DNA of 64,000 nt, taken from contig CAVWLW010000050.1 of assembly GCA_963755715.1 (NCBI GenBank), positions 128,001 to 192,000 on the forward strand. Direction: 5' to 3'. Origin of the DNA: an uncultured delta proteobacterium (GTDB taxonomy: Bacteria; Desulfobacterota; Binatia; UBA9968). Numbering within the stretch: position 1 is the first letter of the stretch; each line of letters begins with the position of its first letter. The notes under the pieces are model-generated. The model made no database searches. It saw only the letters and a program-made list of their open reading frames with translations, and was not told the origin of the DNA. A program made the translations under genes and the position numbers. This document shows positions 2,358 through 52,306 of this stretch, in pieces.

Positions 2358-3453
2358 TTAGATTTCCTTCGATTTGATCGAATAGGTGAAACTTTTCGAA
2401 TCGAGGCTGTCCTTGCGGCCGTTTGCGGTTTCAGCCTGAGGATACATGAGATAGGCAATCTCCGCCCCGCGCGATTGCGGCAGCTTTACATCGTGGGAAT
2501 AGTTGTAGGGCAGCCAATTCATTTCCCATGCGCCGAAAAGTTTGGCGCGGGCTTTTTTGACTTTTGGGTCGTCGATGGGCAGTGGCTCGCCCGGCAGATT
2601 TTCTTCGAGCACGACCTTGCGCACATCGGCCGGATCGACCGGCACCCAGCCGTAGCCATTTAGAAAAACTTCGGCGCGACAGTGCTGCGCTCCGGTAATA
2701 TCATCGGCTCTGCCGAGACTCTTGAACTCCGCCGAGTTCGCCACCCGGATGCCGTAAAGATCGCGCGCCGGCAAGTCCGGCCGCGCGCGCCAAGCCGACG
2801 TAGAGCGCGTTCAGGTCGGCGCATTTGCCGCCGAGATAGCCGCTCTCGAGCATGGTCGTGATATCGCCGATGCCGCAACCTTTGACCTTCGGATCGCGGA
2901 AAGTGTTGTCGACGATCCATTCGTAAATCGCGCGTGCTTTGTCGACATCGTTTTTATAGCCCATGACGATGCCTTTGGATGTCGTCGCGACGATGCCGTC
3001 GGTCCTGATGTACTTGGAGGGCTTGCGAAAATAATCGAGCACGGCTTTGTTCTCTTTGATCGCAGGATTGGGTTTCTGGCTCAGATCGACCCAGCGATCT
3101 TGCGTCATGAAGCGGCTTTTGACTTCCACCGTTGGCGACTTTTCACCCGCAGGCCATTCCGCAAAGACTAATCCGGTGCCAACCTTGTCGGTCTGCTCTG
3201 CACGGACGTTTTTATAGTTGCCGCTCCAGCTATCGGGTTCCCGTTTGAAATAGTCCGTGTTGGTCATGAGCGGCACCGGCACCCAGGCGCGCACGGCGCC
3301 GACCGGATCCGCTATGTCGATCCGAGTCGTGACCTCGAAAGTGCGCCACTTGGCGTCATTGGCGTTGGCGAACGGCGCAAACTTCGGCAGGCCACCGAGC
3401 GCCAGCCCGGCGGAAACGGTCAGTCCTTGTTTAAGAAAATCGCGACGATTCAT
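2358..3453 (-). CDS. Tat-exported transglutaminase-like protein (frameshift near 2773)
   Basis: MNRRDFLK twin-arginine signal; triad motifs GGKCADLN, QHCRAE, WVPVDPAD split over ORFs 2701..3453 and 2358..2774. Confidence 0.85.
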
Positions 3454-3669
3454 AGGGTCCCCCTCTACATCACATAGGCTTTAACGATGGAGGAAAATAT
3501 AACTGTTGAGCCATTATTGTCAATTGCTGGCAACGATAATGAATTACGCCAGCAGCCTGGCGCGCCGGTCGAGCCGCCGATAGAAGCGTTCGGGACGCCA
3601 AGAAGGCTGGAAAGCTCTTTACAAACTGGCTGCGACCCGCCGTGATCGAGAGCCGCCTGTGAACTTTGC

Positions 3670-4134
3670 TCAAAGACTTTTCAAAAAAGCCAAAACTTCT
3701 TCGGGATGGGCTTCGGCTTTCCTGACGGTCGGCCAATGTTTGACCACATCGCCTTTTGGGCCGATCACCACGGTGGAGCGGATGGTTCCCTGCACCTCTT
3801 TGCCGTACATCATCTTCTTGCCGTAGGCGCCGTACTTTTTCATCACCTCGAGGTTCGGATCCGACAGCAAGACGAACGGCAGTTTGTATTTCGCCGTAAA
3901 CTTCTTGTGCGATTCGGCGCCGTCTTTGCTCACGCCCAACACCACCGCGCCGGTTTTTTTGATGTTGGCGTTGAGATCGCGAAAGCCGCAGGCCTCTTTA
4001 GTGCAGCCGGGCGTGTCATCCTTGGGATAAAAGTAGAGCACGACCGTTTTGTTTTTGTAGTCCTCCAGCCCATGCGCTTTGCCGTCGCTGCCTTCCAAGC
4101 TGAAGGCCGGCGCTTTTTTTCCTTCGAGATTCAT
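3670..4134 (-). CDS. bcp: Peroxiredoxin Bcp/PrxQ, cysteine form
   Basis: [16 protein letters not shown] active-site motif; IRSTVVI. Confidence 0.95.
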   Translation of the reverse strand: MNLEGKKAPAFSLEGSDGKAHGLEDYKNKTVVLYFYPKDDTPGCTKEACGFRDLNANIKKTGAVVLGVSKDGAESHKKFTAKYKLPFVLLSDPNLEVMKKYGAYGKKMMYGKEVQGTIRSTVVIGPKGDVVKHWPTVRKAEAHPEEVLAFLKSL

Positions 4135-4188
4135 GTTTTCACCTAGCTCCTTATAAAAAGTTTTCTTCTCTGCCTAGTCAGGATTCGT

Positions 4189-4987
4189 TCACAATGCGAC
4201 GCGCTCGGCCGTCTTTGCCATGCGTCGAATCGGATCGTAATCACTGTCGAGGGACTCGGTAAAGCGCTCGATGCGTCCGCGCGCGAGGATCGCAAGCGCC
4301 ACGCGGGCTTTGCCGCATGCCGAGCAGCAAAGCGCGCAAGTCACGCCGCAAGGTCTCAGACACGCTCTGGGAAATCACCCACGGCGGAATCGGACTCGGA
4401 CCGAGAGTGTCGATCACCCTAATCCGTTCGGCAATTTTGTCGCTCTCGGCGAGAAGCCATTCCAATACCGTGCTGTCGATGGCCGCGCCATCCACGGCGC
4501 CGCGCAAAAGCATTTCGAACGACGCGGTATGTGCCCCGCTCTCGAATGCTTCGCCGAAAAAACCTTCGTTTTGACCGAACTCGGCGAGATAGGCGCGCAC
4601 GACGTTGTAGCCCGAATGCGACCGTGGTTCGTTATAGGCCCAAGCTGCGCCGCGGAGGTCGAATAGAGATCGATAAGGACTATCGCGCCGCACTACCACG
4701 TCGGAAAAATAAACCGGCCTGCCGAGATAACGCGCGCCGGTAGGAATCGGCGCGGCGAGAAGCTCGATCATCGGGTCCGATCGATCGGCTTTTTGAACGT
4801 AGGGCAACCCGCAAAGCCACAAGATTTGGATCTCACCCGCGTCAAATAGCCTTTCCCGTTCTTGCCAGGGAATACCGCTCACATATTCGATTGAGATACC
4901 GAGCGCATCGCCTAAATAGGCCGTGACGGCGCCGCAGAAACTTTCCGTGTTCTCGGCCATGCACGACGCGAGCTTCAAACTCGGCAT
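4189..4987 (-). CDS. PhnD/phosphonate-binding-fold protein without signal peptide (frameshift near 4295; restored C-terminus ...DSDYDPIRRMAKTAERVAL)
   Basis: WLCGLPY, YFSDVVVR, AYNEPRSHSGY, SGAH, DGAAID, P-x-PPWV motifs typical of PhnD-like proteins. Confidence 0.75.
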
Positions 4988-4999
4988 GAAAGCTCAGGG

Positions 5000-5281
5000 T
5001 TATTCGCCGACTTTGACGCCGCGCCAAAAAGCGACGTAGCTCTTGATCGAATTGGCGGCTTCCTTGGGCTCGGGATAGTACCAGGCGGCGTCTTGATTCG
5101 TCTGCTCACCGACTTGAACGTGGTAATAACTTGCCAGCCCTTTCCACGGGCAGGTCGAGTGGGTATCGCTCGCTCGGAAGAATTCTTTTTTGATCGAGTC
5201 GGGGGGAAAATAATGATTGCCCTCGACGACGATGGTGCGATCGGATTCCGCCAGAACCGTATCTTGCCACGTGGCTTTCAT
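5000..5281 (-). CDS. DUF427 (NTP_transf_9) family protein
   Basis: MKATWQDTVLAES, VEGNHYFP, STCPWKGLASYY, AAWYYPEP; GGAGGA RBS at 5294-5289. Confidence 0.9.
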   Translation of the reverse strand: MKATWQDTVLAESDRTIVVEGNHYFPPDSIKKEFFRASDTHSTCPWKGLASYYHVQVGEQTNQDAAWYYPEPKEAANSIKSYVAFWRGVKVGE

Positions 5282-5309
5282 GCGCATGTCCTCCATCGAT
5301 CTTGCTTGG

Positions 5310-6662
5310 TTATTTCTCGACGCAGCGAAACTTGGCAAACACATAAGGATAATGGGCTTGATACCAGTTGCGGAAACTGGGTCGGACCAGATCGGCATCG
5401 GTGGCCCAAGACCCGCCTTTCAGCACGAAGTGCTTGCCGTCGAAAAAATCCGCGGAGTATTCCTGATAATGGGTCATATACGGAGTAAAACCCGGAAAGG
5501 CGTGAAATTCGCTCTGGGTCCACTCCCAGCCGTTGCCGATCAGCTCGCGCACGCCCCAGAAATTCGCGCTCTCGGAATAAAAACCCACCGGTACCGGCGA
5601 CCAGTTTCGAAACCCGATGTTTCGGTTCGTGATCCTCGGGAAATAATCTCGGCCGGTCGAACCGTCCTTTGCCGGATTGGCGTAAGCGGCACGCTGAAAC
5701 TCGGCCTCGGTTGGAAGCCGCGCGCCGCGCCAATTGGCAAACGCCCTGGCTTCGGCCAAGCTGACGTAAACCGGCCATGAGCCCACTTGCTTGAGAGGCA
5801 AGAGATCAAAGACGGTGCGGTAAAACCATTCGCCGTCTTGCTTCAGCCAAAAATGGGGATGACGGATTCCGCCGTCGCGGCGCCAGATCCAATCAGCCGG
5901 CTCCCAGAAGCGCGCTTGGTCGTAGCCGCCGGCCAGCACGAACTCGAAAAACTCCTGATTCGTCACCGGTACGGAATCGATGGCAAATTCCGCGACATCT
6001 ATCGACACGGCGGGAAACTCGTTGTCCCAACCGAAAGCCAACTCGTCGAAGCTGGCTCCCAGTTGAGCGCGGCCGCCCGGCACGGTAATTTTTTTGCGCG
6101 CTGCGGCCTCGTTAAAATAATAACCGCGGAACTCTCGGGATCGAGTCTTCAGCTCTTCGGCCAGCGCATGAATCATGTAGAGCAAGGTTTCTTGATGCAT
6201 GTATTCGTGCTCGAGCACCATGGTGAAGACACGGCCGTTCTCCGCCATCACGTCTGCCGACCCGCTCGCGTAAACGGCGTCGAAAGAATTCAAAACTGCC
6301 GAGCGCACTTGATCGCGATATCTCAAAACCGCGTCGAGGCTCGGCCAATTCTCAGGCACCTCGGGATGGGCGTGGCAGGAACCGGAGTCGACGTCCGGAT
6401 CGATGCCCCGGCTAAAAATTTCATCGAAGCGGGGGTTCGGAGAGGTCCATTTCAATACCCCGGCGCATATTTGGTTCCAGGCGAATGCCGGCAGATGGCC
6501 GACATAAAAAATGAACGGGTGACGAAAAGCGATCGGCTTCGACAACATCGCCTGCCGTTTGACGATACCGAAGAGCTGATCGGACCGCGCCCACGCCGCC
6601 TGGAGTTTTTCCGAGAGACCAGAAACTTCGCTGAGAGGCTTGTAATTTTCCGCGAATGCCAT
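5310..6662 (-). CDS. Non-heme iron sulfoxide synthase (DinB_2 + FGE-sulfatase), EgtB/Egt1-like
   Basis: RHPFIFYVGH, RGIDPDVD-x3-CHAH, EHEYMHQETLLY (His triad), RLPTEAE, GNGWEWT, KGGSWAT, RPSFRNWY. Confidence 0.88.
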   Translation of the reverse strand: MAFAENYKPLSEVSGLSEKLQAAWARSDQLFGIVKRQAMLSKPIAFRHPFIFYVGHLPAFAWNQICAGVLKWTSPNPRFDEIFSRGIDPDVDSGSCHAHPEVPENWPSLDAVLRYRDQVRSAVLNSFDAVYASGSADVMAENGRVFTMVLEHEYMHQETLLYMIHALAEELKTRSREFRGYYFNEAAARKKITVPGGRAQLGASFDELAFGWDNEFPAVSIDVAEFAIDSVPVTNQEFFEFVLAGGYDQARFWEPADWIWRRDGGIRHPHFWLKQDGEWFYRTVFDLLPLKQVGSWPVYVSLAEARAFANWRGARLPTEAEFQRAAYANPAKDGSTGRDYFPRITNRNIGFRNWSPVPVGFYSESANFWGVRELIGNGWEWTQSEFHAFPGFTPYMTHYQEYSADFFDGKHFVLKGGSWATDADLVRPSFRNWYQAHYPYVFAKFRCVEK

Positions 6663-6686
6663 AATTTTCGCTCCATCGGGTAATTT

Positions 6687-6713
6687 ACTATATCCTAAAT
6701 AGAAAATTCCTAT
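6687..6713 (-). promoter_or_regulatory. LysR-type operator (ATAG-N7-CTAT-N7-ATAG) overlapping a TATAGT -10 candidate upstream of the sulfoxide synthase
   Basis: Minus strand ATAG gaatttt CTAT ttaggat ATAG T; T-N11-A dyad at 6699-6713; -10-like TATAGT at 6692-6687. Confidence 0.65.
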
Positions 6714-6753
6714 GGAACAAGGTGGGGCGGATTATTTATTGAGATTTACAGAA

Positions 6754-7665
6754 CTACGGCAGTTGCAGGAATTGGCGAAACGCTTGGGCCGCGGGGGATA
6801 ACGGCCGCTGGCGATAGAGGACCTCGTAGAAGTCCCGCTCCATTTTGAACCCCTCGATCGGCATCTCGATCAAAACGCCTTCGGCGAGCTCACGGCTGAT
6901 GGAGGTGCGGGAAAGAATCGAGACGCCGAATCCACCCAAGAGCGCTTGTTTGACCGCCTCGGTGCTGCCGAGCTGCATGGCGACATTGAGCACCTTATCG
7001 GCGGCTTCTCCCCTGCCGGCAAGCAACTCCCGAAACGAGTCCAGAGTGCCGGAGCCCGTCTCGCGGGAAATAAACCTTTCGGACTGAAGCGCACTTAACT
7101 CGATGGTTCGGCGCGCCGCCCAATGATGATTTTTCGGGATCGCGAGAACCATCTCGTCCTTCCAAATTGTTTCAAATGCCAGGCGGGCGTCGACAGCTTT
7201 GAAGCCGACATACCCGACCTCCACCTTGCCATCGACCACATCTTCGATCACTCCGGCCGAGTCGCCGATCCGCAGGATCGGTCTTACTGCCGGATATTTT
7301 TGGATGAACGCGCCGAGCTTTTGCGGCAACAAGTACTCGCCGGGAATATTGCTGCCACCGATCCAGAGTTCGCCGCTGAGCGTGCCGTGAAATTGTTCCA
7401 CGGCGGACAATGTCTCTCGCTTAAACGCAAGAAGACTGCTCGCTTTGATCGCGATCATCTCGCCCAGCGGAGTCAAACTAACCTTACCCGGAGTTCGGTA
7501 AAATAGTTTTCCGCCGATGCCTTTTTCCAGATCTTGAATATGCGCGCTGACGGTCGGTTGGCGCAACGACAGCCGCTGCGCCGCTTCGGAAAAACTGCCG
7601 AGCTCGGCGACCCAGTAGAAGACCTCGAGTTTGTGGAGATCGAGGTCTTTCTGTGGCCGAGCCAT
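6754..7665 (-). CDS. LysR-family regulator, CysL-like / selenium-metabolism-associated type
   Basis: N-terminal HTH (GSFSEAAQRLSLRQPTVSAHI); GGSNIPGEYLLP, IGDS, RETGSGT, LGSTEAVKQA motifs. Confidence 0.88.
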   Translation of the reverse strand: MARPQKDLDLHKLEVFYWVAELGSFSEAAQRLSLRQPTVSAHIQDLEKGIGGKLFYRTPGKVSLTPLGEMIAIKASSLLAFKRETLSAVEQFHGTLSGELWIGGSNIPGEYLLPQKLGAFIQKYPAVRPILRIGDSAGVIEDVVDGKVEVGYVGFKAVDARLAFETIWKDEMVLAIPKNHHWAARRTIELSALQSERFISRETGSGTLDSFRELLAGRGEAADKVLNVAMQLGSTEAVKQALLGGFGVSILSRTSISRELAEGVLIEMPIEGFKMERDFYEVLYRQRPLSPAAQAFRQFLQLP

Positions 7666-7681
7666 TTATTTCCTTGAAAGC

Positions 7682-7715
7682 GAAGCCAGGCTGGGATTCC
7701 TCTCAGCCTGGCCTC
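7682..7715 (-). terminator. GC-rich hairpin between Sec-bcp and lysR (possible weak terminator/attenuator)
   Basis: GAAGCCAGGCTGGGA-TTCC-TCTCAGCCTGGCCTC; only a short T-run on the minus strand. Confidence 0.45.
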
Positions 7716-7760
7716 CGACAAAAGCAGATCCGGCGCTGCGCCGGTAACTGGGTGGACGAT

Positions 7761-8228
7761 TTACTTCTTTAAAAATTCTAATACTTCAGCCGGGTGCGCT
7801 TCCGCGTTCCCCACTGGAATCCAGTGTTTCTTCACAGTGCCGTCGGGTCCGATCAGCGCCGTCGAGCGAATCGGTCCCTCGACCGTCTCGCCCTGGGCAT
7901 TTTGCCTCGGCCCCCAGGCGCCGTAAGCTTTCATAACCTCCACCTGCGGGTCAGAGAGCAAGGTGAACGGCAAGTTGAACTTGGCGACGAATTGATTGTG
8001 TGATTCGATACTGTCTCGGCTGACACCTAAGACCACGGCATTGGCTTGCGCTACCGGTTGACTAGCGTCGCGGAACCCGCACGCTTCTTTGGTTCAACCG
8101 GGTGTATCGTCCTTCGGGTAAAACCAGAGAATGACGTTTTTTCCGGCGTAATCGGCGAGCGAGTGCTTCTTACCATCGCTGCCCGGCAGCGTAAACGCCG
8201 GCGCCTTTTGTCCTTCTAAATTTGCCAT
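7761..8228 (-). CDS. bcp: Selenocysteine-containing peroxiredoxin Bcp/PrxQ (Sec45, 155 aa)
   Basis: ATG at 8228 with AGGAGG RBS; reads [12 protein letters not shown]...[13 protein letters not shown](8096-8094)-TKEACGFRD and continues in frame into ORF 7761..8036; TGA aligns exactly with the peroxidatic Cys of the paralog at 3670-4134. Confidence 0.85.
8064..8085 (-). promoter_or_regulatory. Bacterial SECIS-like hairpin
   Basis: AGCGU-GCGG-[GUU]-CCGC-G-ACGCU; apical loop starts 17 nt after the UGA and begins with G; not formed by the equivalent codons of the Cys paralog. Confidence 0.7.
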
Positions 8229-8360
8229 GCAAACCTCCTGTAGAGTTTGGATTGTAGCTCTTGTTTATCACACCGCTAAACCTTTGTTCAAACTTGAAAG
8301 CAAAAGTTCGCGCCCTTTCGCGTTGTCAACGGCGCAGCCAGACGGTATATTTTCGGAGAG

Positions 8361-9447
8361 ATGGCCAAACAATCTTTATTGATGGATTTGCACCGATTAA
8401 ACGGCGCCGTTTTCGCCGAGCGCGACGGCTGGGTGTTGCCGGCCCATTTTGGCGATCCAGCTGGTGAATATAGCGCCGTGCGCTCCAGCGCCGGCTTGGT
8501 CGATCTGTCGCGCCGCGGATTGTTGCAATTCACCGGCCCTGACCGCCTCTCTTTTCTCCAGGGAATGTTGTCCAACGACCTGCGCGCTTTGCAACCTTTC
8601 ACCGGTCAATACGCGACGATTTTAACCCAGCAAGGAAAAGTCGTTGCCGACGTCCGAGTTCTTTGCGCGATGAATTCTTTTTACCTCGATTTTTGGGAGA
8701 ACCTGAAAGCTAAGATCACCGACCATCTCAATCGCTATCTGGTCGCCGACGAAGTCGAAATCGCCGATCGCTCGGCGGAATACGACATTTATTTCCGTGC
8801 AGGGCCCGCGCGCCGAAAGTCTGTTAAAAACCCTCGCGGAAAATGCCGCATTGCCGGCGCAGGAGAAGCAGCACGCCATGATCGCCATCGAAGACGCGGC
8901 GGTCTGTGTGGTTCGGGATGATCACGGCATGGCGGCTTTCGACCTGATTGTGCCGGTCGCGAGCGCCGTCGGAATCGCGGAAAGACTAACTAAGGCCGGC
9001 AAGCAATTCTCGGCGGCCTGGGTCGGCGAGGATGCGCAGAACATTCTCCGCATCGAAGCTGGTATCCCGCGTTACGGCGTGGACTTTAACGAGGACAATC
9101 TACTGCTCGAAGTCGGTATCGATCACGCGGTGAGCTTCACCAAGGGCTGCTACTTGGGTCAGGAAGTCGTCGAGCGCATTCGCTCGCGCGGCCACGTCAA
9201 CAAACGACTCTGCGGCTTGTTGCTCGACAGCGCGGTAGCCGCCGATGCCGGCGATCAACTCCAAGCTGACGGCAAAGAGACCGGTAGGATCACCAGCTCG
9301 GTAATTTCGCCTCGATTGGGCCGGCCGATCGCCTTGGGTTACGTGATGAAGGAGCATTGGGAGGCGGGAACCGAACTATCGCTCCGGCACAGCGGCGCCA
9401 ATATCCACACCACGGTGGTAAAGCTCCCCTTCCCAGCCTCCCCTTGA
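8361..9447 (+). CDS. ygfZ: Folate-binding YgfZ/GcvT-family protein (frameshift near 8790)
   Basis: KGCYLGQE signature; GPDRLSFLQGMLSND; LRIEAGIP; split ORFs 8361..8921 and 8797..9447. Confidence 0.88.
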
Positions 9448-10785: not shown

Positions 10786-11337
10786 TTAAAGGTTTAGATA
10801 ACGATTGATGTAATCATTGAGCGCATCCTTGGTGCTGTCAAAAGCGAGATCGTGCCAGGGCAATTCTTTCGGCGCGAAGATTTGCGCTGCCAAAGACTCG
10901 TCCGCCGCTGCCAGCTCACCGCCGATCACGTCAGCGGTATAGACGATGATCACGTTGGGCGAACGAGGATAAGAGTAGACGTTGAGCAGCGGCCCAAGCT
11001 TGACGTCCAACTGCGATTCTTCTTTCGTTTCGCGAATCGCCGCCTCCGGCACGCTCTCGCCGCGATCGACGTAGCCGCCCGGAAAAACCCACTTGCCGAG
11101 CGCCGGTTCGACGCCGCGTTTCAACAAGACGATGCCGCCCTCCAAGGTAAAGACCGTGCCGGCGACGACTTTCGGATCCTGGTAAAAAATAAACGAGCAC
11201 GCCTGGCAGACCAGACGGCGCGGCTCGTTTGTCTTCACGATTTTTTTATCGAGCGTGCCGCCGCAGCGCGGGCAAAAACGAAACTCGATGTGGCCGTGGC
11301 CGTGCGCGTGATGGTGCTGGTCGTGGTCTGATGCCAT
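10786..11337 (-). CDS. NUDIX hydrolase with zinc ribbon and His-rich N-terminus
   Basis: CPRCG...CQAC; Nudix box GGYVDRGESVPEAAIRETKEES. Confidence 0.92.
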   Translation of the reverse strand: MASDHDQHHHAHGHGHIEFRFCPRCGGTLDKKIVKTNEPRRLVCQACSFIFYQDPKVVAGTVFTLEGGIVLLKRGVEPALGKWVFPGGYVDRGESVPEAAIRETKEESQLDVKLGPLLNVYSYPRSPNVIIVYTADVIGGELAAADESLAAQIFAPKELPWHDLAFDSTKDALNDYINRYLNL

Positions 11338-16976: not shown

Positions 16977-17568
16977 TCATTCTCCTTTGACGTGTTGACG
17001 GTAGAGTTCCGGCGTATCGATATCGACGGTAATGCCTTCTTCGTCGGTCTCCATCTCCAAGGTTGCATCGCCATGCGCATTGACCACGGCTTTGGCGCCT
17101 TGATCCATCGGCGCGTCGAGTAATTCGCCGAACAGCCGCCGCGAAAACAGCACCGGATGGCCGCGTTTGCCGCGGCAGCGGGGCACAACGATGTCTTTTT
17201 TCGACTCGTAAAATTGTCGGATCATCCGGTCGACCAGGCTCGCGTCAATGTAGGGATGGTCGACGAGATGAACGAGCATGCCGTCGCAGTCCGGGTCGGG
17301 CAGCAAGTTTCGCACCGCGACTTGCAGCGACGACAATTGTCCCAGCTGGTAATTTGGATTGATGAGAATTTCTACCGGCAGCGCGTCCAATCGCGGCGGC
17401 TAACTGGTCTGCATTGTGACCCAGAACGACGATGATCTTGCCGACCTGAGTGTGCTTCAGCGACGCGACGATGCGCCCAATGAATGTCTCGCCTTCGATC
17501 GGCAAGAGCGCCTTCGGCCGCCCCATGCGGCTCGACTCACCGGCGGAGAGAACAACGGCGGCAATCAT
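16977..17568 (-). CDS. MobA/MocA-like nucleotidyltransferase (frameshift near 17390)
   Basis: LSAGESSRMGRPKALL, GHPVLF, DIDTPE. Confidence 0.85.
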
Positions 17569-37235: not shown

Positions 37236-38670
37236 TCAGCCCAAGGCGATCTCCGGTCGTCGTCGACCGAAGCCTGTCGCCCGTTCGAAGGCATGGGCGA
37301 GTTGTAAGACTCCGCGATCATCACGATACCGGCCGACGATTTGCATTCCCACCGGCAAATCATCGGAGGTAAATCCGGCGGGGACGGAAATCGCAGGACA
37401 GAAAGTCGCGCTGATCCAATACGCAGATTTCATCCAGGAGAGATAGTTTTCCATCTTCACGCCGTCGATCTCGCGCGGCCATGTTATCGTCGCATCGAAG
37501 GGCGGCACCTGATTGACCGCGCAGAGAAGAAATTCGTACTTTTCCTGGAACACGTGCATGCGCTGCATCAGCTCACCGTGGCGAGCCATCGCGTTGGCAA
37601 CGTCAGCGCCGCTGAGTGATTTGCCCAATTCAATTTGCCAGACCGCTTCCGGCTTCATTTCGTGCCGATGGTGATCTAACAGCGGGCCGAGCGTGTGCCA
37701 GTAATTCCATGCGCGCAAGGTCAGAAAGACTTCCTCCGCGCCGCTTAGATCGGGACAAGCGTTCTCAACGATGCAGCCAAGATCGATAAATGTCTTCCGC
37801 TGCGCTTCCAACACTGAGCGAACACGCCGGTCGAGTGGCAAACCGCCCAAATCGGGGCACCAGGCAACTCGCACGTTTTTAAACTCGCGATCCAAAGGCT
37901 TGCTAAAAATACTTGGCTCCGACGGATAAGTAGCCGGGTCGCGCGGATCGGCTCCCGCCATGACACTGAGCAGAAAAGCGACGTCGGCCACTGACCGCGC
38001 CATCGGCCCTTTCACGGAAAATCCGAAAAACGGCAGCGCCGTCGGCGCGGAGGACACGAGACCGACGGTCGGCCGAAGCGCGACGATATTGTTGAAGTTG
38101 GCGGGATTTCTCAGCGAGCCGCCGAGATCGCTGCCGCTTGCAAGCGGCAGCAAGCCTGCGGCCAGCGCTGCGCCAGCGCCGCCGCTCGAACCGCCGGCGC
38201 TTTTCGTTAAATCGTACGGATTCAATGTGACGCCGTAAACGTCGTTGTAAGTGTGCGAGCCCATGCCGAACTCGGAGACATTGGTCTTGCCGATAGGAAT
38301 GACACCGCGCTTTACGCAAGCGCTCGACAACAGACGAGTCTTCGCCCGGCATAAAATCTTTAAAGATCTTCGAACCGCGCGTCATCGGAAAACCGACTGC
38401 AGGGTCTAAATCTTTGAAAGCGAATGGCAAACCGTGCAGCGGCCCCACTTCGTCGCCGCGCGCCAGACGCCGATCGGCGTCATCGGCGAGCGCGAGACAC
38501 TTGTCGTCATCGAGTTTCGCAACGATCGCGTTTATTCTTGGATTGAGTCGTTCGATCTGCCGTAGGAATGCGTCCATGACCTCGTGCGCAGAAATTCTTT
38601 TGTGACGGATCGAGTCCGCCAGGTCGCGGGCGCCCATGAAGCATATTTCGTTTTCCGTAAGAACGGTCAT
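37236..38670 (-). CDS. Amidase signature family enzyme (frameshift near 38310)
   Basis: GPLHGLPFAFKD, GKTN, GGSSGG, GSDLGGSLRNPA. Confidence 0.9.
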
Positions 38671-49148: not shown

Positions 49149-52100
49149 TTAATGAAAATCCCGGCTGGGCGCGCTCGCCGGTTTCAGTTCCACTCTCGGT
49201 TCCCACAATTCGTCCGCAACCAGATGCACCACGCCGTCTTCGACTTGGAGTTTGCCGGTAATACCGAGAAAGCTCACCGTCTTCGCCAGGACCGAATAGC
49301 GCTGAAAGACGCTTTCCCACACGACGATGTTGACGAAACCGGTTTCGTCTTCGAGAGTCATGAATACGACGCCGCCTGCGGTGCCGGGCCGTTGGCGGCA
49401 AATCACTAGACCGGCATAGCGAATCTTCGCGCCATCTTTCATCGCTGCTACGGCGCGCGCGTCGGGCAGGCCATAGCGCATCAAGCTTGGCCGCATCGGC
49501 TCGAGCGGGTGGCGCCGCGGACTATGAGCAGTCCGGCGATAATCCCAACCCACTTCTTCGAAGTCGCTCAACGGCGCGAAACCCGGCTGCCTTTCACGCC
49601 CCGGCAATGATAGGGATTCCTTCTGTGTGCGCGCCAGGCGGCGGGCATCCCAGAGCGCCGTACGACGATCGATGTGAAAGCTATCGAACGCTCCCGCTTC
49701 AGCCAAAGCACAAAGAGCGCCCTCATCTAAACCGGTGCGGCGAGCAAAATCTTCCAGCGAGACAAAAGTTTTTTGCTCGCACGCTAGCGCAATCCGCTCC
49801 CCCTCTCGCTCGCCTAAACCTTTCACGTAGCGCAGCCCCATACGCACAGCCAAGCCGCCGGCGCTCTCGACGCATCTCTCGAGCACGCAATCCCATGCGC
49901 TCACCTGTGCGTCGAGGGGCCGCACGATCACCTGATGGCGCTTGGCATCTTCGACAATCGTCGCGGGTGTGTAAAAGCCCATCGGTTGGGCGTTTAGCAA
50001 CGAGCAAGCAAACTCCGCCGGATAGTGACATTTGAGCCAGGCCGTAGCATAAGCGATCAGCGCAAAACTCGCCGCATGGCTTTCGGGAAAACCGTACTCG
50101 CCGAAGCCGCGGATCTGCTGGAAAATCCGCTCGGCGAACTCTGCGGCTATCCCCTTCGCCTGCATGCGTGTGATCAACTTCTCGTGATGGCGCTCCATCC
50201 GCCCGGAGCGATGCCACGCTGCCATGTCGCGGCGAAGTTGGTCTGCCTCTCCGGGTGTGTAATCAGCCACGACCATCGCAAGCTTCATCACCTGTTCTTG
50301 AAACAGCGGTACACCTAAGGTTTTCTCCAATACAGTGTCCAATAACGGATGGGGCGATTTCGCTTCTTCTTTGCCCTGGCGCCGGCGTAGATACGGATGC
50401 ACCATGCCGCCCGTAATCGGCCCGGGACGAACGATGCTGATCTCGATCACTAGGTCGTAAAAATTTTTCGGCTTCAAGCCGCGGCAGCATCGCCATCTGC
50501 GCGCGGCTCTCGATCTGAAACACGCCCACCGTGTCGCTTTTGCAGATCATTTCATAAGTCGCACGGTCGTCCGGTTCAATCGTCGCCATAGAGAGATCCA
50601 TGCCACGATGCTCGCGCAAGAGCTTGAAGCAAAGGTCGAGTTGAGTCAGCCCGCCGAGTCCGAGCAGATCGACTTTGAACAAGCCGAGATCTTCCACATC
50701 CTGTTTATCCCACTGAACCACCGTGCGCTCAGGCATCGTTGCGTTCTCGATCGGCACCATATCGTGTACCGGTTCATGGCCGAGCAGAAAGCCGCCGGGG
50801 TGAATCGATAGGTGACGCGGGAAATCCAGAATTTCATTGGAAAGCTGAAGTAAATGCTCGTGCAAGCCGCCCGCTGAATCAATCCCTATCTGCGCCAATG
50901 CTTCGGCGCGAACTGGTTCATAGGAAGAAAGCAACTTGGCCATTCGATCGAGAGCGGTTTCGGAAAGCCCCAGAGTCTTACCGACGTCGCGCAACGCTGA
51001 GCGCGAGCGATAGCGCACCACGTTGGCGACCATCGCGGCGCGGTCCCGGCCATATTTTTGATAAACGTGCTGGATCACTTCTTCGCGCCGGTCATGCTCG
51101 ATATCGAGATCGATATCCGGCGGCTCGGCGCGCTCTTTTGAGATAAAGCGTTCGAAGAGCAACCCAATATGTGCCGGGTCGACAGCGGTGATACCCAGGC
51201 AATAACAAACCACGGAGTTTGCCGCCGAGCCGCGCCCTTGGCAGAGGATATTATTGGCCCGGCAGAACTCGATAATCTCCCACATCGTCAAGAAGTATCC
51301 CGGATAGTCGAGAGCTTCGATGATCTCCAGCTCTTTTTCTATTTGCACGACAATCCAATCGGGAATCCCATTTTCGTAGCGCCGCTGCGCCCCGTTCAAT
51401 GTTTGTCGGCGCAGCCACTGCGCCGATGTCATGCCATTCGGCAACTCTTCCGATGGATAACGATAGCGAATTTCGTCCAGAGAAAAATTGCAGCGTTCGG
51501 CGACTTCGACCGTGCGATTGATAATAGTGGGATCGTCGTTAAAAAGATCCGCGAAAGCACGGGGTGGCTTCAGCGCATATTCGGCATTGGGCTTCAACTT
51601 CCTGCCGCAAGAAGCGACGGGAATGCCGTGGCGAATCGCCGTCAGCACATCCTGCAGCCGGCGCCGCGCCGGCGTGTGGTAAAGCACTTCGTTGGCGGCG
51701 ACTAATGGAAAGCCAAAGCGCCGCGCGCGCTCGCGCACTCGAGATTCTTGAATGACTTCTTCTTCGCAACGGTGCCGCGTGAGCATGCCATAAAGGCGGT
51801 CGGCGAAAGCGTCGCGGAGCTTGCCCCCAACGTCATGGGAGTCGGCTTCGCCGACGATCAAACTTCGAGCGCCGCCCCAGAGCGCAATTAATCCCGGCGC
51901 ATGGGCGCAAACTTCATCCCAACTGACAGCGCTCTCCCCTTTCTCCGAGCGCAACCGGCCTTTGGTGATCAACCGACACAGGTTGGCATAACCGCCGCGA
52001 TCCTGCGCCAACAGAACTATCGTCGAACCGTCGTCGATTGTGATCTCGGAACCAATGATGAGCTTGAGCCCGACTTCCCGCGCTTTCACGTGCGCGCGCA

Positions 52101-52245
52101 CGACGCCATAGACGCCGTCTCGATCCGTCAAAGCCAAAGCCCGCAATCCGAATCGATGGGCCTCCTCGACCAGCTCATCCGGATGGCTCGCGCCTTCAAG
52201 GAAAGAAAAATTACTCTTGCACCAGAGGGGTGCGTAGCTGGACAT
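49149..52245 (-). CDS. dnaE2: Error-prone DNA polymerase DnaE2/ImuC (frameshift near 50478)
   Basis: [47 protein letters not shown]-terminal SRDFH motif. Confidence 0.95.
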
Positions 52246-52306
52246 AAGGGACTGAGACAAAAATAACCGATGGTGGCCTTCAGGACGGGTTCATCGAGCT
52301 GCTGAG

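Follow-up and report, generated by a model that had tools for sequence, protein, structure and literature searches.

The regulator most closely comparable to the one described here is archaeal HrsM (Methanococcus), with which Lin et al. (2015) equate the LysR_Se family; the same paper gives LysR_Se as restricted to SelD-containing organisms, most of them Sec-decoding. HrsM represses Cys isogenes under adequate selenium, as described in passages of PMC11097638 and PMC5322559. The LysR_Se/HrsM subfamily had already been put forward in print.

Among nonheme-iron sulfoxide synthases (NHISS), the closest solved relative of the enzyme encoded at this locus is the cyanobacterial type IV EgtB (EgtB-IV; PDB 8vih/8vig), which has the same DinB plus FGE-like architecture. 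SenA/SenB/SenC and OvsA belong to the same superfamily and share a selenium-related context with the locus. A composite active-site motif, RxYH--DxHxHYxNWFx, is given in the ovoselenol preprint, and DUF427 and ‘ABC_peri_selen’ are tabulated at 5.7% and 3.1% of NHISS neighbourhoods, respectively (Table 1, PMC13674229). The remaining comparators are the PrxQ/BCP thiol peroxidases and PrxU, with an AhpC/TSA fold, a P-x-x-x-T-x-x-C/U context and a second Cys five residues on, and the binding proteins AioX/ArrX and PhnD/PtxB (Pfam Phosphonate-bd).

Results

The window analysed is the whole 64-kb stretch of DNA, and all features below lie on its minus strand. Six co-directional genes between 3670 and 8228 are present where the sequence-only reading had placed them: a Sec-PrxQ/Bcp gene (7761..8228), a LysR-type regulator (6754..7665), a nonheme-iron sulfoxide synthase of the EgtB/OvoA family (5310..6662), a DUF427 protein (5000..5281), a leaderless PhnD/AioX-like binding-protein-fold gene (4189..4987) and a Cys-PrxQ/Bcp gene (3670..4134). 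Gaps of 28 nt and 12 nt are also as that reading gave them. The third, given as 54 nt, is 106 nt with the PhnD-like ORF as read (4241-4987) and 54 nt if reading continues past an assembly frameshift (near 4300) and ends with the stop at 4189, where relatives place the true C-terminus. The same reading had proposed a search for this gene order in relatives, and seven out of 80 related loci keep the neighbourhood, each of them from a Binatia-type MAG; LysR, Bcp and EgtB-like genes occur together in these seven, joined by the PhnD-like gene and a second Bcp in five and by DUF427 in two. Counts out of eight refer to the window plus these seven relatives (L001, L002, L003, L004 and L010 are those named here). 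The order of the genes is not constant, lysR and the first Bcp exchanging places in some loci, and DUF427 is carried by three of the eight.

The two Bcp paralogues are closely similar, as claimed (64% identity across 152 residues), one with Sec (PGUTKEAC) and the other with Cys (PGCTKEAC) at the peroxidatic position. Both match PF00578 (AhpC/TSA; 130.9 and 132.5 bits) and have a resolving Cys five residues past the peroxidatic residue (U/C-TKEA-C); scores are below the NCBIfam PrxQ equivalog cutoffs (161.8 and 180.9 vs 260; 119.2 and 128.2 vs 140) and below that of the PrxU model (47 bits vs 270). The Sec-Bcp ORF, whose codon 45 is an in-frame TGA (8096..8094), stays open through this codon and aligns over its full length with the Cys paralogue; the TGA stands where homologues have their catalytic Cys, and coding is conserved to both sides. 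A bacterial SECIS is a hairpin shortly 3′ of the UGA, with a G in the apical loop. Here, a SECIS-like hairpin (8064..8085; stem of 8-9 pairs, apical loop GUU) begins 11 nt past the UGA, and its core, GCGG-GUU-CCGC, is found in all 6 Bcp genes with TGA and in none of the 8 with TGC; the folding energy of the 61-nt stretch by itself is not significant (z-score -0.73). With the hairpin tracking the TGA, this codon is, on comparative evidence, a genuine Sec codon. No sel genes or tRNA-Sec were found within the 64-kb window; the hairpin that goes with TGA speaks indirectly for a SelD-containing, Sec-decoding host. Directly 3′ of Sec-Bcp, a consensus scan marks a terminator-like G+C hairpin plus T tract (7720..7744), with a similar hairpin, judged by eye, at the equivalent position in L001, which suggests that Sec-Bcp may form a separate transcription unit.

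The regulator has HTH_1 (PF00126, residues 10-69) and LysR_substrate (PF03466, residues 94-301) domains, bearing out the LysR assigned between the Bcp copies; for its earlier CysL-like label, LysR_Se (NF040786) is the better name. NF040786, the selenium metabolism-associated LysR model, is the best match at 259.7 bits, only 9.7 bits over its curated cutoff of 250; the seven orthologues score 260.5-281.1 bits, placing 8/8 above the cutoff. The next best model, YeiE, gives 162.0-178.6 bits (cutoff 480) and the OxyR model 75.6-93.1 bits (cutoff 329). A scan of 66 window ORFs turned up none of the neighbouring genes that would mark LysR_Se membership. In 8/8 loci lysR lies near selenoprotein genes, one or more peroxiredoxin genes with a TGA codon being no further than ~3 kb away.

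A LysR-type operator had been proposed within 6680-6720, and an exact tripartite element, ATAG-N7-CTAT-N7-ATAG (LysR T-N11-A type), does lie there (6688..6713), stopping 25 nt short of the EgtB-like start codon and conserved across loci. In the 64-kb window there is a single copy of the core ATAG-N7-CTAT (0.14 expected by chance). The motif is found in the spacer 3′ of lysR in 8/8 loci, with 0, 0, 0, 1, 1, 2, 2 and 2 mismatches, the three 2-mismatch loci being near-identical to one another and the pattern having been derived from the same sequences on which it was then scored, so that shuffle counts are optimistic; 21 other cluster spacers, taken as a control, each have at least 4 mismatches. 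Matches with ≤1 mismatch in the eight loci lie only in the lysR-downstream spacer or ahead of a transglutaminase-like gene, and there are none in 73 other loci (1,097,672 bases; 1.10 Mb), where a G+C content of 67%, vs 55%, lowers the expected count of this A+T-rich motif. As only 25-42 nt separate the element from the next start codon in 7/8 loci (95 nt in L002), it presumably overlaps the promoter of the following operon. Beyond the cluster, a sigma-70-like promoter (3523-3496) and then another operator-like site with 2 mismatches (3488-3463; both features within 3463..3523) precede the transglutaminase-like gene (2358..3453; two ORFs here, intact at 364 aa in relatives), and L001 and L002 have matching sites, also with 2 mismatches, before the same gene. 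On our reading its N-terminus looks like a twin-arginine signal, and the gene may also belong to the regulon.

All the genes that this operator would govern are redox-related (peroxiredoxins, the thiohistidine synthase and DUF427, with its thiol-redox fusions), as would be expected if the LysR were a peroxide or redox sensor with OxyR-like logic, its selenium label inherited by homology and its selenoprotein neighbours incidental. The absence of sel genes nearby, a score barely over the family cutoff and bacterial LysR_Se members that are not known to have been characterised all suit this explanation. However, the OxyR scores fall far short, every orthologue passes NF040786, and a TGA peroxiredoxin close to lysR at every locus fits a selenium-gene-linked family; a redox sensor of this kind is judged rather unlikely.

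The distribution of Sec and Cys differs among the relatives. L001 has TGA in both Bcp copies, with no Cys copy; L002 has TGC in both, with no Sec copy among the two; and in L003, L004 and L010 the first Bcp copy is Cys and the last gene of the operon Sec. The operon-end Bcp is thus Sec in 4/6 clusters having one, the window counted (L001, L003, L004, L010). The first Bcp of L002 is 88% identical to the window Sec copy but carries Cys, and the last Bcp of L001 is 81% identical to the window Cys copy but carries Sec. A fixed layout, with the Sec copy kept out of the regulated operon and a Cys backup within it, had been read from the window; it is seen only there, all five of these relatives differing. 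Because the peroxidatic Sec or Cys varies from one PrxQ orthologue to another, the window pair would be a snapshot of labile Sec-Cys exchange rather than a designed primary/backup pair.

By position, the Bcp immediately 3′ of the operator is Cys in 6/6 loci with a Bcp there and the Bcp 5′ of lysR is Sec in 2/2, the sole copies so placed. This is what would be predicted for those positions by a selenium/sulfur switch, whereby Se-replete cells use Sec-PrxQ while LysR represses the operon, and Se-poor cells produce Cys-PrxQ and a thio- or seleno-histidine antioxidant. LysR_Se membership, the repression of Cys isogenes by HrsM, the window arrangement (Sec copy outside the operator-headed run, Cys copy inside) and an operator spacing compatible with repression would all accord with such a switch. 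Yet the operon-end Bcp is most often Sec, L001 and L002 each lack one of the two forms, and in L003, L004 and L010 Cys and Sec copies share one tight run (gaps of 12-62 nt), so that reciprocal regulation is not easy; its selenoneine branch, moreover, meets an enzyme unlike SenA (see below). The switch is accordingly improbable, and the proposed parallel with HrsM stands for membership of a selenium-associated LysR family (by NF040786 score) and is not supported for a conserved Cys-backup switch.

The synthase is EgtB-IV-like. It consists of DinB_2 and FGE-sulfatase domains only, which is the EgtB architecture, and has no N-terminal methyltransferase domain, so that the earlier ‘Egt1-like’ label was dropped; fungal Egt1 was rejected, its EgtD-like methyltransferase fusion being absent. 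PDB matches rank EgtB-IV first (1.7e-59), followed by type I EgtB (2.6e-54), OvoA (1.3e-47), OvsA (3e-31) and SenA (~5e-27), and the protein is below all three NCBIfam cutoffs (EgtB TIGR03440, 257.1/360; OvoA N-terminal, 277/400 bits; SenA, 242.2/420 bits). OvoA identity was rejected on this score and on the end of the protein at residue 450, with no C-terminal methyltransferase domain. SenA identity was rejected on its score, on a PDB match far weaker than that to EgtB-IV and on the lack of senB/senC, an NCBIfam scan of 66 window ORFs having given no senB- or senC-like genes (glycosyltransferase and SelD types); the selenoneine branch of the sequence-only reading is not supported by these results.

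Residues H56, H152 and H156, the same in all 20 sequences compared, align with the 8vih histidines and are taken as the putative iron triad. EgtB-IV and the synthase have these histidines and the R..Y..H and N-W patterns in common; by our own mapping to 8vih, the positions of the composite motif would be R47, Y53, H56, D, H152, H156, N432 and W433, with Y434 for F (NWY replacing NWF). In addition to this Tyr for Phe, the synthase differs from EgtB-IV in a C-H-x-H insertion (residues 96-99) and in having no adjoining egtD. Across the related loci, egtD is adjacent in 69/80 (one scores as EgtD, 301 vs a curated cutoff of 290.9), and synthase relatives at 43-57% identity are directly followed by it, unlike the window; tblastn gave no egtD match in the 64-kb window or the seven cluster loci. 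EgtB-like proteins of the cluster loci form one clade (SH-aLRT 99; 80-row tree, with the partial L023 omitted).

The DUF427 protein (93 aa), which probably starts at the ATG at 5281 rather than 5398, has one invariant Cys, within C-x-W-K-G. Among 99 longer matches, clusters with DUF427 fused to ThiS (6), thioredoxin (5), EgtB (2), EgtD-type methyltransferase (2), cysteine desulfurase-type (2), FAD disulfide reductase-type (2), PhnD-like (1) and rhodanese (1) domains were identified, many of them single-member clusters that may be gene-calling artefacts.

The PhnD-like ORF opens 12 nt past the DUF427 stop, directly with the domain's first strand; no signal peptide was seen by inspection, and orthologues (257-276 aa) are likewise leaderless. 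Its neighbours are DUF427 and Bcp, with no ABC permease or ATPase beside it. All 18 rows of an alignment share Cys18, Cys59 and an S-H-S-G loop. The protein matches Phosphonate-bd, as AioX/ArrX and PhnD/PtxB do, with best PDB matches to AioX (6e-23) and ArrX (3.8e-17); the match to the putative selenate-binding model TIGR04553 is weak (43.9 bits, cutoff 250). Unlike these proteins, it has no signal peptide, adjoining ABC permease or ATPase, or sensor kinase, and unlike periplasmic oxyanion binders it is encoded within a thiohistidine operon.

With its closest matches among arsenic oxyanion binders, even a weak resemblance to TIGR04553, the reported ‘ABC_peri_selen’ neighbours of NHISS genes and a regulator from a selenium family, this protein might be thought to deliver a selenium species to the synthase, the operon then making a selenium-containing imidazole. 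This is very improbable, given a TIGR04553 score far under cutoff, the lack of senB-/senC-type genes and an enzyme in the OvoA/EgtB-IV branch rather than with SenA/OvsA, which by our 8vih mapping would have R..Y..H and D in place of the N-E and H-R of SenA.

Discussion

That the genes are adjacent by chance or for purely historical reasons, with no common regulation, is hardly credible: a single lineage, the variable order and DUF427 in only 3/8 loci fit this view, but the cluster is retained even where LysR and EgtB identity drops to 55-57%, the spacer element is conserved and the gaps between genes are short (8-28 nt). As all eight loci come from one lineage, conservation partly reflects shared ancestry.

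The best reading is an operon for peroxide defence and thiohistidine synthesis under LysR_Se control, with Sec and Cys having interchanged over evolution. Like HrsM and other LysR_Se members, its regulator is LysR-type, above the family cutoff and beside selenoprotein genes and Cys homologues, and in the window the operator adjoins a gene for a Cys isoform. Unlike HrsM, it belongs to a bacterial (Binatia-type) host with no sel biosynthesis genes alongside, its putative targets are peroxiredoxins and a thiohistidine synthase rather than hydrogenases, and relatives hold both Sec and Cys forms within the putative regulated unit. As in known bacterial selenoperoxiredoxins (e.g. PrxU), Sec takes the place of Cys in cluster Bcp; compared with PrxQ and PrxU, there are two paralogues per cluster here, with Sec and Cys exchanging among orthologues and scores under equivalog cutoffs. 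From SenA and OvsA the synthase is much more distant, with a different substrate-binding pattern, and the selenosugar synthase and selenophosphate synthetase genes of those pathways are not nearby.

Under this reading, LysR would bind the tripartite element and set expression of the operon by selenium status or a redox cue, a selenium cue being suggested at family level by HrsM and LysR_Se. The operon comprises the EgtB-IV-like sulfoxide synthase, DUF427 in some loci, the leaderless PhnD/AioX-like protein and a PrxQ/Bcp peroxidase. With cysteine and hercynine, possibly histidine, as its substrates, the synthase may form the C-S bond of a 2-thioimidazole of the ergothioneine type, EgtD being encoded elsewhere or dispensable, and DUF427 may act as a cysteine-based thiol or sulfur helper. 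Upstream stands the PrxQ paralogue with its Sec codon and SECIS hairpin, followed by the terminator-like hairpin, and a second, weaker operator-like copy lies ahead of the transglutaminase-like gene. Taken in full, this explanation, to which we give an even chance of being correct, would make the locus a lineage-conserved peroxide-defence cluster of Binatia-type (soil) bacteria under a LysR_Se-family regulator.

Organization and conservation of the cluster

All six genes proposed in the sequence-only reading are present at 3670–8228 of the window, every one on the minus strand. They encode a PrxQ/Bcp peroxiredoxin with TGA at codon 45, across which the frame is open (Sec-Bcp, 8228..7761; PGUTKEAC), an EgtB-like synthase (6662..5310; DinB_2 and FGE-sulfatase domains), a DUF427 protein (5281–5000, start placed by comparison with relatives), a PhnD-like protein (Phosphonate-bd; 4987..4241 as the ORF stands), a second, Cys-containing Bcp (Cys-Bcp, 4134..3670; PGCTKEAC) and, between the two Bcp copies, a LysR-type regulator (7665..6754). 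The Bcp paralogs are 64% identical over 152 residues and both carry an AhpC/TSA domain. Relatives show the PhnD-like gene to be frameshifted near 4300 in the assembly, with a predicted proper end at 4189. Of the short gaps originally described within the gene run, the first two (28 and 12 nt) were given correctly; the third measures 106 nt in the ORF as read and becomes the described 54 nt only after frame correction, i.e. with the PhnD-like gene ending at 4189.

Within 7 kb, three genes are broken when compared to intact orthologs (GcvT/YgfZ-like, 8361–9447, plus strand; transglutaminase-like, 2358–3453, minus strand; PhnD-like, ~4300, minus strand). Others, including those for an amidase (37236–38330), a MocA-like protein (16977–17390) and an error-prone polymerase (50263–52260), are shorter than their family models and seemingly truncated. 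The window assembly is probably indel-prone.

A genome search with the synthase alignment gave 80 loci (L001, L002, etc.), which were searched with the six window proteins (tblastn). LysR and Bcp genes lie beside the synthase in seven of these (L001, L002, L003, L004, L007, L010 and L023). All seven are from MAGs assigned to Binatia or carrying the legacy labels ‘delta proteobacterium’ or ‘Proteobacteria’. Gene order in L001 is the same as in the window, while L002 has LysR-Bcp-EgtB-DUF427-PhnD-Bcp, L003, L004 and L010 have LysR-Bcp-EgtB-PhnD-Bcp, L007 has LysR-Bcp-EgtB and L023 is truncated within the synthase gene. Conservation extends to the flanking genes (HAD hydrolase, Nudix, Rieske ferredoxin, GcvT/YgfZ-like, transglutaminase-like and a xanthine-dehydrogenase-family subunit). 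In a quick IQ-TREE analysis of 80 rows, the seven full-length cluster synthases (partial L023 excluded) group as a single clade (SH-aLRT 99); its sister clade, linked to egtD, comes from Methylomirabilota, Rokubacteria and Verrucomicrobia. The cluster features are real and conserved. No published account of this gene combination was found in a search of the literature outside supplementary files; for ergothioneine, egtB, peroxiredoxin and LysR together it returned one paper, on a thermophilic cyanobacterium genome, and for selenocysteine in Binatia it returned nothing.

Stops or frameshifts in the PhnD-like gene of L003 (9365–10153) and the last Bcp gene of L004 (10228–10708) reflect either pseudogenes or assembly errors. 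Three other loci come from MAGs labelled Enterobacteriaceae (L039), Bifidobacteriaceae (L045) and Bifidobacterium breve (L076), and their synthases branch among environmental lineages: those of L045 and L076 with Acidobacteriota, that of L039, on a long branch, close to rows from Planctomycetota and Myxococcota. These bins are probably mislabelled or contaminated.

A selenium-associated regulator and a genuine Sec codon

The best NCBIfam match of the LysR protein is NF040786 (LysR_Se, ‘selenium metabolism-associated LysR family transcriptional regulator’; 259.7 bits, with the curated cutoff at 250). All seven LysR orthologs also pass this cutoff (260.5–281.1 bits), and the OxyR model gives 75.6–93.1 bits against a cutoff of 329. 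Lin et al. 2015 (PMC5322559), who defined the LysR_Se subfamily, found it only in SelD-containing organisms, often beside selA/B/D, and equated it with archaeal HrsM, a regulator that represses Cys isogenes under adequate selenium according to PMC11097638. Family membership together with this mode of repression gives the analogy with HrsM drawn from the sequence a basis in the protein family; the broad concept that bacteria have a counterpart of HrsM has been published before.

The Sec codon in the upstream Bcp gene also proved genuine, on strong comparative evidence from a hairpin. The window and the seven related loci together supply 14 Bcp genes (six with TGA, eight with TGC). In all six TGA copies the Gly-Phe-Arg beyond the catalytic codon is spelled GGG-UUC-CG, which creates a GCGG-GUU-CCGC hairpin; none of the eight TGC copies has this spelling. 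In Sec-Bcp the hairpin (loop GUU) begins 11 nt past the UGA, in keeping with commonly used SECIS criteria, and its folding z-score alone is not significant (−0.73). Folding energy was rejected as a SECIS test: values for Sec copies (−13.2 to −14.7) overlap those for Cys copies (−6.8 to −15.8), some of which form a different hairpin, so the discriminating signal is the specific conserved hairpin and not energy. An Rfam scan of 3000–9000 (E up to 10) gave two chance-level matches and no SECIS family, and no tRNA-Sec or sel genes were found within the 64 kb window. A terminator-like hairpin lies 3′ of Sec-Bcp. Support is good both for the family assignment of the regulator and for the Sec codon.

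Candidate operator

The operator proposed at the head of the gene run corresponds to a conserved element in the spacer after lysR, and is a good candidate. The tripartite pattern ATAG-N7-CTAT-N7-ATAG is matched exactly in the window (6688–6713, minus strand), L001 and L002, with one mismatch in L007 and L023 and two in L003, L004 and L010, which are nearly identical to one another. The other 21 spacers of the clusters have at least four mismatches in either orientation. A single copy of the core ATAG-N7-CTAT lies in the 64-kb window (chance expectation 0.14). Among the 80 loci, the core was matched at the homologous position in L001 and L002, at one intragenic position in L004 and nowhere else; no match to the operator with up to one mismatch was found in the 73 other loci (1.10 Mb, richer in G+C). 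Shuffle counts for the operator are optimistic, as the pattern came from the same data. The element stops 25–42 nt short of the following start codon (in L002, 95 nt), and therefore presumably overlaps the promoter.

At 3523–3463 (minus strand) a near-consensus promoter is followed by a second, weaker operator-like site with two mismatches. The promoter and an AT(C/T)G-N7-CTAT-N7-AGAG site precede the transglutaminase-like gene in the window, L001 (~11040–11077) and L002 (~8215–8250), which suggests that this gene may belong to the same regulon. A conserved stretch of the divergent spacer between the gcvT-like gene and lysR, considered as another operator, is instead read as two overlapping, opposed promoters (TTGTCA-17-TATATT).

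Distribution of Sec and Cys copies

In the original model the LysR protein would switch on Cys-Bcp as a backup, together with a thio/seleno-histidine pathway, according to selenium status. This specific switch fails the comparative test. Catalytic codons, read in each copy, specify Sec then Cys (first, then last Bcp) in the window, Sec and Sec in L001, Cys and Cys in L002, and Cys then Sec in L003, L004 and L010; L007 and L023 have a first copy with Cys and no last copy. The last gene of the operon thus encodes Sec in four of the six clusters having one, window included. The first copy of L002 has Cys, though 88% identical to the Sec protein of the window, and the last copy of L001 has Sec, though 81% identical to the Cys protein. 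In favor of the original model, a Bcp gene immediately after the operator specifies Cys in 6/6 loci and both copies upstream of lysR specify Sec, but this pattern represents few independent events.

Six of the seven cluster loci encode, ~2 kb upstream of lysR, a third AhpC/TSA peroxiredoxin that is more distantly related and has TGA in frame (LDFTGG-U; L002:1421–1885; L003:~4190–4660; L007:~4350–4870; also L004, L010 and L023). It is absent from the window, where the search matched the two Bcp genes only.

Synthase, DUF427 and PhnD-like proteins

The synthase reaches none of the three curated cutoffs (OvoA N-terminal, 277/400; EgtB, 257/360; SenA, 242/420). Matches to solved relatives are best for EgtB-IV (E 1.7e-59), followed by type I EgtB (2.6e-54), OvoA (1.3e-47), OvsA (3e-31), SenA (about 5e-27) and type II EgtB (about 1e-24). 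Nothing supports the selenoneine branch of the original model. In our own mapping to composite motifs taken from the ovoselenol preprint, the synthase appears to have the EgtB-IV pattern, but with Tyr434 for Phe (NWY); the supplement of that preprint (Table 4 and Fig. 2) lists uncharacterized motif classes of the NHISS superfamily (which includes EgtB, OvoA and SenA), and may already include NWY.

By tblastn, egtD adjoins the synthase in 69 of the 80 loci, and was not found in the window, the seven cluster loci, L027, L039, L041 or L066. ORF clustering found it in only 38 loci, an undercount due to spurious opposite-strand ORFs in G+C-rich loci that also affected L039 and L041. One egtD neighbor exceeds the EgtD cutoff (301 vs 290.9). 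Tyr434 (5361–5363), which follows an N-W pair, is present in 9/11 rows without egtD versus 3/69 with egtD, in only two or three clades. A C-H-x-H insertion (residues 96–99) is common to the cluster and sister clades. In the histidine-using AshA, a Tyr binds the free amino group; we take this position to be equivalent to Tyr434, and by this analogy histidine is a possible substrate of the synthase.

In a Planctomycetota MAG (L041:7213–7794, minus strand) a PhnD-like homolog (39% identity) adjoins, in divergent orientation, a Tyr434-type synthase gene without egtD, which hints that the synthase/PhnD-like pairing is not confined to Binatia. In about 20 egtB-egtD loci (L011, L016, L024–L026, L032 and others) there is also a gene that fuses permease and binding protein, together with one for a ProV-like ATPase, of the betaine ABC type; we take these to resemble the ergothioneine importer EgtUV.

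DUF427 occurs in 5.7% of NHISS neighborhoods (Table 1 of PMC13674229), and in L055 and L065 it is encoded ~1 kb downstream of the synthase. Fusion partners among 99 longer homologs are EgtB, EgtD-type methyltransferase, ThiS, thioredoxin, cysteine-desulfurase-type, FAD disulfide-reductase-type, rhodanese, CcdA and PhnD-like proteins, although many of these fusions (proteins P0243–P0327) are single-member clusters and may be artefacts. They point to a putative role in thiol chemistry or sulfur transfer. The single invariant Cys of DUF427 lies in C-x-W-K-G, the closest structure is 3djm and the fold is a beta-tent, common to MsrB (PMC4287342).

The PhnD-like protein has no leader peptide and is nearest to AioX and ArrX. 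Its family is abundant (257–276 aa), with invariant Cys18 and Cys59 and an S-H-S-G loop. For several of its matches the longest contig has the length recorded for synthase matches, so the two may share contigs. In the ESM Atlas, which lacks the L010 PhnD-like sequence, a homolog led only to phosphonate-binding clusters of a generic kind and to no structure.

Implications

A joint reading, which we consider unlikely as a whole, is that a Binatia-type selenium-sensing LysR_Se regulon coordinates selenoperoxiredoxins with an EgtD-independent thiohistidine pathway. The EgtB-IV-derived NWY synthase would act on histidine or partly methylated histidine, its Tyr mirroring the Tyr of AshA that binds the free amino group; DUF427 would be the missing Cys-based sulfur/sulfoxide-processing partner of NHISS enzymes, and the leaderless AioX-like protein would bind an effector or intermediate. 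If true, this thiohistidine pathway would be previously uncharacterized.

Predictions of LysR_Se regulators in bacteria date back to 2015, and we know of no target, operator or ligand for them; with a 26-nt candidate operator and a compact target gene set, the cluster is a direct test case. Its EgtB-type neighbors and sulfur-carrier and thiol-redox fusions make the role of DUF427, a widespread domain, testable, and a thiohistidine synthase clade unlinked from egtD may indicate a product other than ergothioneine. The 14 PrxQ copies (six Sec, eight Cys) constitute a natural series for study of Sec gain and loss, in which the SECIS hairpin comes and goes with TGA via synonymous codon changes.
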